Source: Candidatus Moraniibacteriota bacterium
GTDB taxonomy: Bacteria > Patescibacteriota > Minisyncoccia > Moranbacterales > UBA1568
DNA length: 64,000 nucleotides
Assembly: GCA_013336285.1 (NCBI GenBank)
Contig: JAAXTX010000001.1
Location: 20,201 to 84,200, forward strand
Reading direction: 5' to 3'
This document shows positions 34,287 through 63,573 of this stretch, one piece after another (within the stretch, counting starts at the first letter, position 1; every line of letters starts with the position of its first letter). The position numbers and the translations under genes were made by a program. The notes beneath the pieces are model-generated. The model searched no databases and had not been told where the DNA came from. It saw nothing but the letters and a program-made list of their open reading frames with translations.

Positions 34287-34372
34287 CCGTCTTTAGGGAT
34301 ACGTCGACGACATGTCGCTGAAGATGGGGCCGATAGGAAATCATCCTATCGGCGGTTCATGAACGTTTTTTC
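34287..34372. repeat. copy 1 of a conserved double-hairpin element (hairpin CCGTCTTTAG..CTGAAGATGG with conserved ACGTC..GACAT loop, then GCCGATAGG..CCTATCGGC hairpin + T-tract)
   Basis: Same architecture and near-identical CGCTGAAGATGGGGCCGA core as the elements at 41320-41386 and 42592-42670. The first stem is maintained by G-U wobble changes. Confidence 0.5.
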
Positions 34373-40781: not shown

Positions 40782-40924
40782 CGAGTCGTTGTATCGGTTT
40801 CCGATTCATGTCGGTAATGAAGTGTTCATATCATCCTATTCCTTTCCGGTATTCCGCGCAAATCAAAAAAGCGTAAGGAATGGTTCTTCCTTACGCTATG
40901 ACAGCATCCGACCGACCGCCGACA

Positions 40925-41284
40925 TCATGACGGGATCTCCAACTTGTCCGTCACCTCGTCCGAAAAGGCGAGACGGACCTCGGACCAGTCCCAACCGCAG
41001 AGCGCCGTCACGACAAGCGCCACTGTGCCGTTCGGACCCCTGAAGTGGGAGAGCTTCTCGAACAGGTATTCGATAGCCCGGTCGGCCGCCTCGTTCCGGA
41101 TGACGATGCCAAGCTCGCCGATGAACGACTCGATGTCGCGCATCGCCTCCTCGGAAAGGACGAAGAGTTTCTTCCCGCGACGCGTCCGCTCCGGCGCCCC
41201 GACACGAAGGTCGAATCCGTCCACGGAAAGATCGTACTCGCCTTTCCTGACGGGCCTGAGTGCTCCGAACATCTGATATCTCAT
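40925..41284 (-). CDS. hypothetical protein (119 aa)
   Basis: GGAGA SD 6 nt upstream of the ATG. No recognisable motifs. Confidence 0.45.
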   Translation of the reverse strand: MRYQMFGALRPVRKGEYDLSVDGFDLRVGAPERTRRGKKLFVLSEEAMRDIESFIGELGIVIRNEAADRAIEYLFEKLSHFRGPNGTVALVVTALCGWDWSEVRLAFSDEVTDKLEIPS

Positions 41285-41319
41285 GTTTATCTCCTTTGAT
41301 TTGAATTTTAAATATCGGA

Positions 41320-41386
41320 TCCATCTTCAGGAGTACGTCGGGACATACCGCTGAAGATGGGGCCGACTACAGTTATCGTATCGGCC
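41320..41386. repeat. copy 2 of the conserved double-hairpin element
   Basis: CCATCTTCAG-gagtacgtcgggacatacc-GCTGAAGATGG, then GGGCCGA-ctacagttatcgta-TCGGCCC. Confidence 0.5.
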
Positions 41387-41900
41387 CGCATTGTACCATC
41401 GACAGATGCCAAGAATGGCAACCGATATGAACCGCTCGGGATTGACCCATATCGGATATCGCACTGTCGGTAGGTGCCGAACATATCCTGTGCATCACAC
41501 GGTTCCAGCCGCGCGAACATTCACATAGAATATGTTCCGGTCATCGAAGCGTCTTCCCTCTCTTGGGGGACATGACCCTCTCATCACGGCAATCGCCCAT
41601 AGCCACGCGCCTTTCGTAAAGAATTCCCTCCCGAACGAGGTTCCCACCATCTTGTCTTGGAAATATCCGAAGAAAAATGGATGATTCTTTACAGCGAGAG
41701 ACAAATACCCCGCGAAGACTGTTGGGAACAATCTTCGGGGACCGGGTTTATGCATGCCATGACCGAATGACCACCCCTTGCAACCGGGGTTACGAAAAGA
41801 ACAACCGAACCCTTGTCCGGTATCGAATCCGCATCCCGCGATACGACCTCGATACCGGAGCCGACAGAAATTATTCATGTCGGCCACTCTACTGTTCGAC

Positions 41901-41972
41901 CCGCTTCGGCCGGATCTCCTTCGTTTCCTCTTGCGAGGTTCTGTTGACAACGGGCGAAGTGGACCCGTCCGG
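41901..41972. repeat. conserved ~70-nt 3'-UTR box (copy A) immediately after the stop of small paralog A
   Basis: ccgcttcggccggatctccttcgtttcctcttgcgaggttctgttgacaacgggcgaagtggacccgtcc. Differs at ~8 positions from copy B at 42676-42745. Confidence 0.45.
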
Positions 41973-41973
41973 A

Positions 41974-42379
41974 TCAGTTCAAGACACGAAGTCCCTTCCT
42001 ACACATCTTAATCCGTACCGTATGACGCGAGCCCCCTGGATCATCGTCTTGGGATGAAAACATCCATCCGTGCCAAAACTTCACGATAATCAGATTCCCA
42101 CGCACGATAACGGATTCGATGCGAGAAATGTCTTCATCATAAGGGTCGTGAGCCCCGAAGATGGAGACGATCGAAAGGCACCCGCGCTTGTCCCGCCAGA
42201 GGACGTGTACCCTTTGAAAGGTATCAAAGGTATCCCCAACGCTCCACTCCCATAATTTCGAAGGCACGACACAAATATCGGCTCGTCCTTCGGGGTAGAC
42301 GTTGGAATGCACACGACACTCCCAGCGGGTACTCCGCTTGACCGCACGGTCCGCGGCCTGTTCAGAAATAGCCTGCATA
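41974..42379 (-). CDS. small hypothetical protein, paralog A (135 aa)
   Basis: Start MQAIS with a GGGGGAGG SD. Homologous over its length to paralog B, for example PEGRADICVV/PKGRQDVCLV, HVLWRDKRGCL/YLVWKDEDGHL and IVKFWHG/TVKFGSG. Confidence 0.5.
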
Positions 42380-42575
42380 CCTCCCCCTTTGCCCCGAAAG
42401 GCCTTTGTGTTCGTCATTTTTTTATGACGAGCGGTTACAAGGAACTTCTTTCTTTACCGGTCAAACGCCCTCACTTGATCCGGGGCAAGGACTTATCGAA
42501 CATCCACAGTTTGATCTTGACAGCAATTACCCTGACGAAAAACTGAAATTTGTTCATTTATATCTCCTGATAAAA

Positions 42576-42670
42576 CCGTTAAAAAAATTAACCCATCTTC
42601 AGCAGCACGTCTGCGACATACCGCTGAAGATGGGGCCGACAAGAATGCTATTCGGGTCGGCCGGGTTTTA
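42576..42670. repeat. copy 3 of the conserved double-hairpin element; its first hairpin plus TTAATTTTTTT acts as a minus-strand intrinsic terminator
   Basis: CCCATCTTCAGC-agcacgtctgcgacatacc-GCTGAAGATGGG, then GGCCGAC-aagaatgctattcgg-GTCGGCC followed by GGGTTTTAT. Confidence 0.5.
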
Positions 42671-42675
42671 TCGAT

Positions 42676-42745
42676 CCGCTCCGGCCGGATCTCCTTCGTT
42701 TCCATTGCGAGGTTCTGTTGCCAACGGGAGAAGTGATCCCGTCCG
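42676..42745. repeat. conserved ~70-nt 3'-UTR box (copy B) after the stop of small paralog B
   Basis: ccgctccggccggatctccttcgtttccattgcgaggttctgttgccaacgggagaagtgatcccgtccg. Confidence 0.45.
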
Positions 42746-42753
42746 ACCGAAAT

Positions 42754-43110
42754 TCAAAGCTTCGACGAACAGCTTCTCTCCCAGGGAGATCCGCTGTAGG
42801 CGCCTCCGCTTCCGAATTTCACCGTCACCGCGTCGCCCTCGACCTCGATACTCTGGGAACTGATATAGTCCTTCGAGTTTCGGGTATTCGCGAGTTCGCG
42901 GTTCCGGAGGTGCCCGTCTTCGTCCTTCCAGACGAGATACAGGGTGTCGTATCCGTACGACGTCCCGTTCTCAGCCGCATGACTGACAAGACAGACATCC
43001 TGTCTTCCCTTGGGAAACGTGGGGCTATACGTGAAATCGCAGCCGAGCTTCGGCGCGATTCCGTTGATATAGCCACGCGCTTCTTCCCGGGTAATGGTAG
43101 GGTGCTCCAT
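42754..43110 (-). CDS. small hypothetical protein, paralog B (118 aa)
   Basis: AGGAGG SD 4 nt upstream of the ATG. Homologous to paralog A (see 41974-42379). Confidence 0.5.
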   Translation of the reverse strand: MEHPTITREEARGYINGIAPKLGCDFTYSPTFPKGRQDVCLVSHAAENGTSYGYDTLYLVWKDEDGHLRNRELANTRNSKDYISSQSIEVEGDAVTVKFGSGGAYSGSPWERSCSSKL

Positions 43111-43179
43111 GTTTCCTCCTGAATTTGAGGTTGATAGGGATATTTTGATCGGTTTTCCGGATATTCCGTCAAACAGGCT

Positions 43180-43353
43180 CTATGATCCGGTTCTCATCCG
43201 ATTCCTGAGTTCGGCCTTGGATCGTTTCCGGTCATACCCTTTCTTCCCGCTCTTCGTGGAGTGAGCCCCGCCCTTGTGACGGAGAAGGTCCACCACCTCC
43301 GTCGGAAGTCGCCACTTGGACGGCTTCGGTTTACGTACCACTATCTTTTTCGA
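43180..43353 (-). CDS. small highly basic protein (58 aa)
   Basis: MSKKIVVRKPKPSKWRLPTEVVDLLRHKGGAHSTKSGKKGYDRKRSKAELRNRMRTGS. Strong SD AAGGAGA. The longer ORF in the track starts at an unlikely upstream Met. Confidence 0.4.
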   Translation of the reverse strand, partial: SKKIVVRKPKPSKWRLPTEVVDLLRHKGGAHSTKSGKKGYDRKRSKAELRNRMRTGS

Positions 43354-43805
43354 CATTATTCTCTCCTTTTTTATCAATTTTCCATTATAAATGTTCTTTT
43401 TCCGGTCAATGACATTCCCTCGGGAACCATGTGTGAAAGACTCATATTGGGGGAATGAATATATTTGAATATTGCCCCGAAATGGCCCGAACACATGGTT
43501 CCACCAGGCTTCCGACCCGCATTTCGCGCTTTCTTGCCGCCATCGCGTCGAAATCGGCGTGTCGCCCAGTTATCCGAGTATGGAATGCCTATCTTTTGAG
43601 GTACCGGCGACGGGTCATTCGACTCGACCAGACAACATAGCGCATCATATAAATCCTGTCAAGTAACATGGACACTATTGCTAACATATTACTTATATAT
43701 GCATTATAAAGGCGTTATTATAATATAAATTATGTCTATGCGATTTGTCTAAATAATTCTAATTGTTTGACGGAACATATGTATCAATCAATATGTCCAT
43801 CGATA

Positions 43806-43834
43806 TTGACAACATATGCCTGGCATGCTAGGAT
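43806..43834 (+). promoter_or_regulatory. sigma70-like promoter (-35 TTGACA, 17 nt, -10 TAGGAT) in an AT-rich intergenic island
   Basis: atatTGACAacatatgcctggcatgcTAGGATgcg. Confidence 0.4.
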
Positions 43835-43840
43835 GCGCGG

Positions 43841-44170
43841 AAAGTGATTACTTGATGTTTGTTAACAATTTAACCACGGAGGAAATTATGGACTGACCAC
43901 TTTTTTTCCTGACGGGATGAGCACGTCTGTCATGAGACGTCGCTCATCCCCGCGATGGAAACGGGTCGGTTCCTGAATATCTCCACAAACCAAAAAGGAG
44001 GAAACGTGCAATGAACGATTAGCATTATCCCGCCCAGATCGGCAAGCTTTCGCTGAAAATTATGCGGAGCACTGAAAAAAATAGCACAATATGTAGGCCA
44101 AACGTCCAAACGGACGGATAGCCCTTTCAAAAAACCCCGGTGATCGTATTCATACGACCCGGGGTTCTTC
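43841..44170 (+). ncRNA. candidate ~330-nt non-coding transcript (promoter to intrinsic terminator) containing a GGGATGAGC..GCTCATCCC hairpin and two SD-preceded mini-ORFs (MD*, MND*)
   Basis: No ORF longer than 19 codons between the promoter at 43806 and the terminator at 44129-44176. It contains two perfect SD sequences (GGAGG, AAAGGAGG), each followed by a 2-3 codon ORF. No match to known RNA family motifs that I can recognise. Confidence 0.2.
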
Positions 44171-44176
44171 TTTTTC
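44129..44176. terminator. bidirectional rho-independent terminator
   Basis: AAAAAACCCCGG-tgatcgtattcatacga-CCGGGGTTCTTCTTTTT. Confidence 0.6.
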
Positions 44177-44189
44177 GGATATTGTTCGC

Positions 44190-44945
44190 CTATTCTTCAG
44201 ACTGGTATCTTTCGGCAGCTTCCCATGCCAGGTCGAGAATAGCCTTAAATGAGTCCGCGATATCCTTGTCCTCGATGACGACGCCTGTCAATCGGTCACC
44301 CAGTGACGCGATCCTGACCTTGTCTCCGTACACCGCGATGTCGGATTTTATCGGAAACCTATCAAACGGGACCTTTCTCCTTTGTCCATCGGCGGTGCTT
44401 TCCAGCACGCCGTTCGTATACGTGTAAATGACCTTGGTCATGATGCCTTTCGCGATCCGTTTCGCGCGGGATTTTTCCCGGACTTCCTTCGGAAACACCT
44501 TCTCGATGGAATCGACGCAATACGCCATATTGACGACGTCACAGGCGGACATCGTGAATTCTTCGATCATCGTCAATATTCCCTCCCTGCCTTCGTAATA
44601 TCGAACCACCGGACGGCCGGCATCCTTGTTGTTCATCGATTGCAGCTGCGGAAGCAGCTTCTTCAAATCCTCGCTCTTCCTGCGGATCTCCCGTTCCTGA
44701 CCGTCGAGAATATCGAGAAGTCGTTCCGGGTCTGCCGCGACGAAAAACTGCTTCTTTCCTTTATGAAAGCTGCTCATCAGACCCTTTTCCATGAGTCCCT
44801 CGATAACGAAGTAGGTCGTTGCACGATTCACGCCCGCCTTATTCGAGATTCCCTGTACCGCCGATTGTCCCAATTCCAAGGAGGCCAGATAGACTTTTAC
44901 CTCTTTCTCATTCAATCCGATCTCCATGAGTTCCCGTTCGAGCAT
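44190..44945 (-). CDS. TrmB-family HTH transcriptional regulator
   Basis: N-terminal wHTH (LNEKEVKVYLASLELGQSAVQGISNKAGVNRATTYFVIEGLMEKGLM). 251 aa. Confidence 0.6.
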   Translation of the reverse strand: MLERELMEIGLNEKEVKVYLASLELGQSAVQGISNKAGVNRATTYFVIEGLMEKGLMSSFHKGKKQFFVAADPERLLDILDGQEREIRRKSEDLKKLLPQLQSMNNKDAGRPVVRYYEGREGILTMIEEFTMSACDVVNMAYCVDSIEKVFPKEVREKSRAKRIAKGIMTKVIYTYTNGVLESTADGQRRKVPFDRFPIKSDIAVYGDKVRIASLGDRLTGVVIEDKDIADSFKAILDLAWEAAERYQSEE

Positions 44946-56958: not shown

Positions 56959-57139
56959 ACGTTACCGACTTTCGACTTTATGGACTTTAAGACCTTATGG
57001 ACTTGTACCATTCAACTTTCCGCTTCTATTACAGCCTTTTTCCGGGGAAAAGTAAACCGGTCGGCACGATAGCGACCGCAGGCGCGAAAAAGGCGGGGTT
57101 CAACCCGCCTCATTGAAAACCATTATGCGATCACGGCAT

Positions 57140-63544: not shown

Positions 63545-63573
63545 TTGACACTATGGCAAATACCTGCTATACT
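63545..63573 (+). promoter_or_regulatory. consensus sigma70-type promoter (-35 TTGACA, 17 nt, -10 TATACT) with AT-rich UP-like region, followed by >400 nt GA-rich ORF-free leader
   Basis: agtaTTGACActatggcaaatacctgcTATACTtcgctg. Upstream 63470-63540 is >75% A/T. Confidence 0.5.

Follow-up and report, generated by a model that had tools for sequence, protein, structure and literature searches.

Bacterial and phage minigenes combine a strong Shine-Dalgarno (SD) sequence, a start codon, one to three sense codons and a stop codon; examples are lambda bar (AUG-AUA-UAA), the two-codon mg2 of the axe-txe leader and the two-codon LEE1/ler minigene. The strong SD permits ribosome re-initiation. Potency increases with the strength of the SD and the shortness of the minigene and depends on which sense codon is the last; toxicity depends on these three features too (PMC8708949). 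In cis, minigenes work by binding ribosomes or protecting the mRNA, in trans by peptidyl-tRNA drop-off (PMC8708949). Known minigenes occur within longer mRNAs, in a leader or a gene, or else in a phage attachment region. Here we describe unit A, a predicted small RNA (sRNA) gene with two tiny open reading frames (ORFs) of this kind, in a 64-kb stretch of DNA (from here: the window, meaning the whole stretch of 64,000 nt that was analysed) from a metagenome-assembled genome of Candidatus Moranbacteria, which belong to the Patescibacteria or Candidate Phyla Radiation (CPR).

Start-stops such as those in yecJ and hslR, detected by retapamulin Ribo-seq in E. coli, show SD-dependent ribosome loading on an ORF too short for a useful product and were interpreted as regulatory (bioRxiv 10.1101/520783). 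Unlike these one-codon units, which lie out of frame inside protein genes, the ORFs of unit A have two to four codons, are paired on an intergenic sRNA and have been kept across deeply diverged lineages. Leader-peptide and translational attenuators (trpL, hisL, ermC and the cat and cmlA leaders) resemble unit A in that a short, SD-led ORF is accompanied by hairpins sequestering elements of a ribosome-binding site (RBS). The stall peptides of cat and cmlA also end in Asp. The 5′ stabilisers of the STAB-SD type (cryIIIA, ermC, SP82) carry a near-perfect complement of the 16S rRNA 3′ end near the transcript 5′ end, which binds ribosomes without protein being made; they have no functional start codon or ORF and stabilise a downstream mRNA. 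Dual-function sRNAs (SgrS/SgrT, RNAIII/hld, SR1/SR1P) are, like unit A, terminated small RNAs in which ORFs, there translated, occur together with structured regions.

Unit A lies in a gene-free gap of 830 nt (43360-44189) that is flanked by two minus-strand genes and in which gene callers placed no gene on the matching public contig. It has the following parts, with the convergent neighbouring gene given last:

43806-43834, plus strand: unit A promoter, with -35 TTGACA (43806-11), a 17-nt spacer, -10 TAGGAT (43829-34), extended to TGc-TAGGAT (43826-34).
43841-44175, plus strand: unit A, predicted stand-alone transcript of ~335 nt, bounded by the conserved promoter and terminator.
43841-43877, plus strand: 5′ leader, unstructured (z = +1.3), with the motif TTAACAATTTAACCA at 43862-76, conserved in the near group of relatives.
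43878-43882, plus strand: Shine-Dalgarno 1 (SD1), GGAGG, 5 nt before the ATG, pairing with TCTCC at 43980-84.
43888-43896, plus strand: mini-ORF1, ATG GAC TGA (Met-Asp-stop).
43878-43984, plus strand: P1, a long irregular hairpin with the anti-SD TCTCC (43980-84) at the end of its 3′ strand.
43914-43950, plus strand: apical stem-loop of P1, GGGATGAGC-ACGTCT / AGACGT-C-GCTCATCCC.
43997-44001, plus strand: Shine-Dalgarno 2 (SD2), GGAGG, in an A-rich unstructured stretch.
44011-44022, plus strand: mini-ORF2, ATG AAC GAT TAG (Met-Asn-Asp-stop), overlapped by the alternative GTG CAA TGA at 44006-14.
44023-44128, plus strand: 3′ part of variable length and sequence, with lineage-specific hairpins.
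44129-44176, unstranded: bidirectional intrinsic terminator, consisting of A6, a stem at 44133-44166 (CCCCGG/CCGGGG core at 44135-44164) and then TTCTTCTTTTT, common to unit A and the TrmB-family gene.
44190-44945, minus strand: gene for a TrmB-family helix-turn-helix regulator (Pfam PF01978, E = 3e-13), convergent with unit A in every locus.

The initial annotation, made from the window alone, had picked out the TTGACA-17-TAGGAT promoter, a hairpin with a palindromic loop, two perfect SDs each followed by a mini-ORF, and the bidirectional terminator, and all of these were found at the positions given above, the promoter having in addition the extended -10. It had also suggested comparing the syntenic regions of relatives, which revealed the hairpin and the mini-ORFs conserved in 16 lineages, with compensatory changes in the stems.

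Relatives were collected by a genome search with the TrmB-family protein (three close loci), by a DNA-pattern scan of metagenomes (at least two further distinct sequences) and from the contigs of eleven TrmB homologues, identical contigs being collapsed. Including the window, 16 distinct Moranbacteria-like lineages carry unit A, with TrmB proteins 57-77% identical to that of the window. Seven form a near group and nine a far group; because the lineages are related, counts across them are not independent. In all 16, promoter, leader, SD and tiny ORF1, hairpin, tiny ORF2, variable tail and terminator follow each other in the same order and position, convergent with the TrmB gene. The near group has a common leader motif, TTAACAATTAACCA, and a common hairpin stem, GGATGAGC/GCTCATC, which forms the invariant lower part of the apical stem, while changes in the upper part are compensated. 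In the far group, a hairpin of unrelated stem sequences occupies this position, and the SDs are still stronger (GGAGGTGA, GGGGGTGA).

Because promoter, hairpin, minigenes and terminator recur in all related lineages examined, we conclude from sequence comparison that unit A is a real functional element, representing a lineage-restricted RNA family of unusual architecture, with paired minigenes of which one appears hairpin-gated. The opposite view, a promoter-like site, hairpins and SD-like strings thrown up by chance in a long spacer or left from the decayed 5′ end of a former gene, could draw on the fact that AT-rich spacers yield many promoter-like matches and that promoter-like sites as a class are not enriched at 40-46 kb (8 found vs 5.7 expected). 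It is refuted by conservation and its probability is close to nil: the elements are kept in order, in spacing and, where paired, by compensation across the 16 lineages, and no similarity at the protein level was found in any frame beyond near-identical DNA. A hidden protein gene was rejected as well, since no ORF of ≥25 amino acids (aa) is conserved on either strand of unit A beyond near-identical DNA.

The family is restricted in its distribution, as unit A was missing beside the TrmB homologues L005-L014, which come from other CPR phyla and are 27-43% identical. Among the 120 stretches listed by the metagenome pattern scan, all but L016, L120 and L086 lacked the other motifs of the unit and were taken as chance hairpins (only L023 was inspected individually). 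L023 itself, matched at 33 bits by a covariance model of the near group, turned out to be an unrelated GC-rich terminator from another organism; this near-group model does not detect the far-group relatives. Rfam 15 gave no match at gathering threshold in the whole window or in the loci of 12 relatives, and at E values up to 10 only chance-level matches below 17 bits were obtained for 43000-44400. Our literature searches brought up no RNA of this kind from CPR bacteria. The closest genome match, L002 (DATMYW010000065.1), is labelled Candidatus Fimivivens, a genus of Clostridia, yet it has a Moranbacteria-type TrmB gene and unit A; this contig is probably mis-binned.

The two tiny ORFs were surveyed in all 16 lineages, giving 32 ORFs. 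SD1 (GGAGGA, GGAGGTGA or GGGGGTGA) is strong in every lineage and lies 4-8 nt before the first start codon. ORF1 has two to four sense codons throughout, with the products MD, MND, MGD, MGDH, MGDY, ME, MDD, MGDF, MGH, MGN and MGDL, while ORF2 encodes MND, MGD, MSD, MGDG, MD, MGN, MNN or MCD in all lineages but one (L004). The consensus is M-x-D for both. At most four sense codons, that is one to three after the start, are present in 31 of the 32 ORFs even where the surroundings cannot be aligned; the chance of this is ~0.17 per ATG. The ORFs begin with ATG (28) or GTG (4) and with no other triplet, and the spacing from SD to start is 4-11 nt overall and 5-11 nt for SD2 where present. SD2 is strong in all nine far-group lineages, in the window and in L135. 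Codon 2 varies synonymously (GGA/GGC/GGG/GGT, AAC/AAT, TCC/TCT), Asp occurs in 26 of the 32 ORFs, and NAY codons make up 61% of the sense codons of the tiny ORFs vs 14% in the long genes of the window. TAG is the ORF2 stop in 11 of 16 lineages, whereas the long genes of the window favour TGA. Stops turn over among close relatives (GAC TAA TGA, GAC TAT TGA, GAC CAT TGA), a back-up TGA keeping the ORF tiny. On both strands of the window, GGAGG followed by a start and at most four codons occurs at three sites only, two of which are in unit A. The third, at 57139 on the minus strand (GGAGGagaataaATG CCG TGA), may be a gene-junction artefact or another minigene.

Hence, judged by their sequences, ORF1 and ORF2 show the marks expected of initiation and termination sites in genuine use, and the conserved Asp and Asn codons suggest that decoding matters, beyond ribosome binding.

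The predicted RNA is strongly structured. Its minimum free energy (MFE) is -109 kcal/mol for the whole transcript (z = -4.8 vs shuffles), -51.1 kcal/mol for P1 (~105 nt; z = -5.35) and -19.6 kcal/mol for the terminator hairpin (z = -4.2). The 5′ strand of P1 holds SD1, AUG1 and ORF1; the 3′ strand ends in an anti-SD that reads TCTCC in the window and CCCTC in relatives. At the apex, the arms GGGATGAGC (43914-22) and GCTCATCCC (43942-50) are complementary over all 9 + 9 nt, and the palindromic 'loop' between them lengthens the stem to 15 bp with a loop of 6 nt (-26.9 kcal/mol, z = -5.4). The ACGTC..GACGT of this palindrome had been likened to the loops of double-hairpin repeats elsewhere in the window; the resemblance spans 5-6 nt only, is specific to this genome and is probably coincidental, because the upper-stem sequence differs in relatives. 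In 13 of 14 MFE folds ORF1 is paired with a segment 70-100 nt downstream, whose lineage-specific sequence tracks that of ORF1. The duplex of cognate 5′ and 3′ strands is the best of 14 in six of 14 lineages, for which we estimated a chance of ~4e-4. On a near-group alignment fitted to the structural model, 80% of the cells of P1 are paired vs 34-46% in slid controls, and 15 pairs changed on both sides vs 6.9±1.8 in shuffles. From three far-group sequences, an independent RNAalifold prediction arrived at this topology too, with compensated pairs. No structure is predicted for the 5′ leader or the ORF2 region, and the mean predicted unpaired probability is 0.23 for AUG1 vs 0.62 for SD2; ORF1 is therefore predicted to be closed and ORF2 open.

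Based on these features, we propose that unit A is a regulatory RNA that engages ribosomes through two minigenes, one gated and one open, and that its promoter is probably under a TrmB-like regulator, a proposal to which we give slightly less than an even chance. Both minigenes would be genuine initiation and termination sites, and the RNA would work via ribosome engagement. ORF2 would be constitutively accessible; ORF1, gated by the hairpin, would be reachable only co-transcriptionally or upon opening of the hairpin. Ribosome binding and abortive 'mini-translation' (fMet-X-Asp) might then set the conformation and lifetime of the RNA. Alternatively, components of translation could be tied up, such as 30S or 70S ribosomes or tRNA-Asp as peptidyl-tRNA, as with known minigenes, and a further possible output would be the sensing of Asp/Asn or of queuosine (Q)-tRNA decoding.

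Several observations weigh against this proposal. The near-group alignment in which pairing was scored had been fitted to the structural model, which biases its result toward structure. As ORF1 is base-paired, its conservation could in part reflect structure, and GAC and CTAG could be conserved as an RNA or protein recognition motif and not as codon and stop. Before ORF2, no SD could be recognised in five near-group lineages, and the ORF2 of L004 has nine codons (9 aa). In L139, L142 and L143 an out-of-frame ORF of 14-31 codons overlaps mini-ORF2, starting with a TTG 5-6 nt after SD2. It is probably incidental, because neither its length nor its C-terminus is conserved, but is a caveat on which start is used. 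Finally, forcing the ORF1 footprint to be single-stranded changed the predicted accessibility of SD2/AUG2 by a mean of -0.03, a thermodynamic prediction only. A simple toggle, in which occupancy of ORF1 occludes ORF2, is thus not supported, no consistent effect on predicted accessibility having been seen.

Some of the same observations could also be read without any translation. Unit A would then be a structural or base-pairing sRNA in which the SD/AUG-like strand of P1 is an internal mimic that masks a CU-rich anti-RBS seed on the 3′ strand (e.g. CCAUGA...ACCCUCAAUCUCC). The seed would act in trans on the RBS of a target mRNA whose product begins with M-G/N-D. ORF2 would either be incidental or serve as a further mimic, and the stops would do no more than keep spurious translation short. 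CU-rich seeds directed at SD regions are frequent among the sRNAs of Gram-positive-type bacteria, which we counted in favour of this explanation, as we did the SD2 missing from five near-group lineages and the pairing of SD1, AUG1 and ORF1 in 13 of 14 MFE folds, where they covary with the 3′ strand. Nevertheless, structure leaves unexplained why two to four codons, ATG or GTG alone and the SD spacing are kept where the helix sequences wholly differ, and far-group ORF2 is preceded by a textbook SD within open, A-rich sequence. Moreover, no target was identified, and the neighbouring unit B RNA lacks conserved complementarity. We consider an untranslated sRNA possible, though rather unlikely.

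The ribosome-engaging RNA that we propose would in addition be independent of any downstream gene. No same-strand gene follows unit A in any locus, and we therefore take unit A to be a stand-alone small-RNA gene with a near-consensus sigma-70-type promoter, and not a leader. The initial annotation had left open a ~330-nt non-coding RNA or a leader; the former fits the conserved unit, whereas the latter is at odds with a strong terminator followed in every locus by the 3′ end of a convergent gene. All relatives have a GC-rich hairpin and a T-run at the position of the terminator, and the region between ORF2 and this hairpin is 80-290 nt long in them, with no conserved sequence and no ORF. In the window, the terminator ends 14 nt from the stop of the TrmB-family gene.

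This arrangement raised the question of a cis regulator of the convergent TrmB-family gene, acting through transcriptional collision, read-through or 3′-to-3′ overlap at the common terminator, with the minigenes and the hairpin as attenuator-like modulators. In 16 of 16 lineages unit A converges with TrmB on a common bidirectional terminator while the genes beyond TrmB differ, and the two RNAs would have a complementary 3′ hairpin of ~45 nt in common. Yet 3′ overlap at bidirectional terminators is commonplace; the terminators, which have long GC stems and U-tracts, are strong; inspection by eye revealed no antiterminator alternative; and the 80-290 nt between ORF2 and the terminator are not conserved. 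The linkage is also partly by design, as loci were retrieved via TrmB, although the pattern-scan loci L016 and L086 adjoin TrmB too: L086 is identical to the TrmB-retrieved L003, and the C-terminal coding sequence of TrmB is read after the unit in L016. Such a cis role appears improbable to us.

Set against the described systems, the ORFs of unit A have the layout of bar-type minigenes (SD, start, few sense codons, stop). Unlike known minigenes, two of them share a dedicated, terminated small RNA without a downstream cistron, one is embedded in a conserved hairpin and the encoded M-x-D is kept across lineages. As in leader-peptide systems, SD1 and ORF1 lie near the 5′ end, at +38 to +56 of the predicted RNA, and are conserved in 16 lineages. 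A leader-peptide attenuator, or any leader of a downstream gene, was rejected as no regulated same-strand gene lies downstream in any locus; in addition, no known leader peptide is nearly as short as these ORFs, it is the RBS of the first ORF and not that of a downstream gene that is sequestered, and no alternative terminator or antiterminator was seen by eye. Unit A shares with STAB-SD elements a strong SD near the transcript 5′ end. It does not fit this class, because it has conserved, correctly spaced ATG or GTG starts with in-frame stops, two such sites and no downstream mRNA, so that only the RNA itself could be stabilised. The peptides of dual-function sRNAs have 26-43 aa and functions of their own, whereas the products of unit A would be di- to tetrapeptides. 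A CsrB/RsmZ-type sponge was rejected with 2-14 GGA per RNA vs 4-7 expected by chance and only 0-2 of them in predicted hairpin loops. ARAGORN found no tRNA or transfer-messenger RNA in the window. Against a replication origin, 43000-44400 contains no TTATCCACA-like site (≤1 mismatch) and the cumulative GC skew keeps falling through the region.

The sequences upstream of unit A contain the following further features:

43663-43805, unstranded: AT-rich spacer (73% A+T) between the back-to-back promoters of unit A (plus strand) and unit B (minus strand).
43732-43749 and 43793-43811: repeated ATGTYYAT-N5-6-TTGWC motifs, the second overlapping the unit A -35, both conserved in near-group relatives.
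43360-43662, minus strand: unit B, conserved, with a divergent promoter (-35 at 43662-57, -10 at 43639-34) and a structured leader of ~260 nt ahead of a gene for a basic protein of 59 aa.
43180-43359, minus strand: gene for the very basic 59-aa protein without known family, downstream of the unit B leader.

An AT-rich island of ~70% A/T at 43640-43840 had been counted among the parts of the original candidate. It is indeed the most AT-rich stretch of the window (67.2% A+T vs 46.6% for the whole window), and only 0.14% of 201-nt windows are as AT-rich; with the predicted transcription start at ~43841, however, sequence analysis places it outside the RNA, as a shared divergent promoter region upstream of the transcript. 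The TTGACA, the 17-nt spacing and the TGCTA of the extended -10 of the unit A promoter are invariant in 14 of 14 aligned lineages and likewise in L148 and L151; the common form of the promoter is TTGACA-17-TGnTAnnnT. Elsewhere in the window, TTGACA-N17 promoters with a TGn extended -10 occur only at 63545-63573 (plus strand) and 25143-25115 (minus strand). The unit B promoter (TTGACA-17-TATGTT/TATACT) is as conserved as that of unit A and lies 174 nt upstream of it in near-group and 237-297 nt upstream in far-group lineages, the divergent layout being found in every relative with enough sequence. In the far-group loci L139, L142 and L143, a perfect DnaA box (TTATCCACA) is present in the AT-rich spacer between the promoters. 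The repeated ATGTYYAT-N5-6-TTGWC motifs are candidate operators for the adjacent TrmB-family regulator, and both promoters are probably under the control of this neighbouring TrmB-like protein.

Unit B, with counterparts at 7390-7690 of L003, 4250-4560 of L136, 4380-4720 of L140 and 4330-4700 of L145, looks from its sequence like a long structured leader or riboregulator. Its promoter is followed by a 5′ hairpin, it contains an invariant AAAAGATAG motif (window 43589-43605, read on the plus strand as CTATCTTTTGAGGTACC) and an inverted repeat, GGAACCATGTGT/ACACATGGTTCC, at 43423-34 and 43491-502, as well as an AT-rich palindromic core (GGGGCAATATTCAAATATATTCATTCCCC), and its 3′ end is the SD of the small protein gene. 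It has no Rfam family. In the far group, the same kind of leader precedes other small proteins, which are hydrophobic or Cys-rich there and basic in the near group. A motif of the TTTAACAAT(T) type is located in the unit A leader in the near group (window 43862-43876) and in the unit B leaders in the far group (L145/L004/L140/L147), there directly before a CCCTCA...TGAGGG hairpin preceding the SD of the small gene; it may be a common protein- or RNA-recognition site.

The divergent, non-overlapping arrangement of unit A next to a long structured 5′ untranslated region and small proteins of a basic (near group) or a hydrophobic or Cys-rich (far group) kind recalls type I toxin-antitoxin pairs such as IstR-1 with tisB, in which unit A would be an antitoxin-like sRNA repressing the unit B mRNA by pairing. 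We disfavour this possibility and consider it very improbable. Instead of ~18 nt or more, perfect complementarity in 13 cognate pairs of unit A and unit B RNAs extended over 8-11 nt at most, at inconsistent positions and about what chance gives for 350 x 420 nt, and the downstream protein is not conserved across the groups whereas unit A is.

Since the genes on the far side of TrmB vary between loci, TrmB, unit A and unit B behave, as far as their sequences indicate, as a module. This set was found in differing genomic neighbourhoods among the relatives, and a second TrmB paralogue lies close by in several of them (L136, L140, L145). In the window, a run of small minus-strand ORFs of 119, 147, 118 and 59 aa occupies 40900-43360; these ORFs gave no match in Pfam, NCBIfam, PHROGs or PADLOC, and the four small proteins and a 238-aa protein have no Pfam family. 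In L135-L137 and L152, the small protein gene is followed by an unnamed gene of 118 aa, a positional counterpart of the window ORF. Families of long hairpin repeats (e.g. CCATCTTCAGC..ACGTCTGCGACAT..GCTGAAGATGGG) are spread among the small unannotated minus-strand ORFs at 40.8-43.1 kb, and translations of L003 suggest similar repeats in relatives. The repeats in the window are:

34287-34339, 41342-41367, 42593-42645; 41896-41971 and 42671-42745: long hairpin repeats, the 'double-hairpin repeats' of the initial annotation.

If the ribosome-engaging function that we propose for unit A were its whole purpose, unit A could represent a new class of regulatory RNA whose function is mini-translation itself. 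Such a 'minigene RNA' would capture ribosomes on a gated and an open ORF of two to four codons ending in Asp/Asn. It would be controlled by a TrmB-like regulator in CPR bacteria with reduced genomes and would either brake growth by titrating ribosomes or tRNA-Asp, comparable to a 6S-RNA-like decoy for ribosomes, or sense NAY decoding, that is Asp/Asn charging or the queuosine status of tRNA. We regard this extension as speculative and unlikely.

The bacteria of the CPR/Patescibacteria are uncultured and have tiny genomes with few regulators, and to our knowledge almost nothing is known about their RNA-based regulation. In this context, every relative examined has retained a gene-free gap of ~0.8 kb in which two conserved non-coding transcription units adjoin a TrmB-family regulator. 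For the architecture of one of them we found no description: a stand-alone small RNA with two conserved ORFs of two to four codons, one locked in a covarying hairpin. Even if untranslated, unit A would add a new family of structured RNA to Rfam-type catalogues and to the annotation of Moranbacteria genomes. If its minigenes are translated, they would be natural, evolutionarily maintained minigenes that form the working part of an RNA, and would offer a handle on how translation is tuned in such cells.

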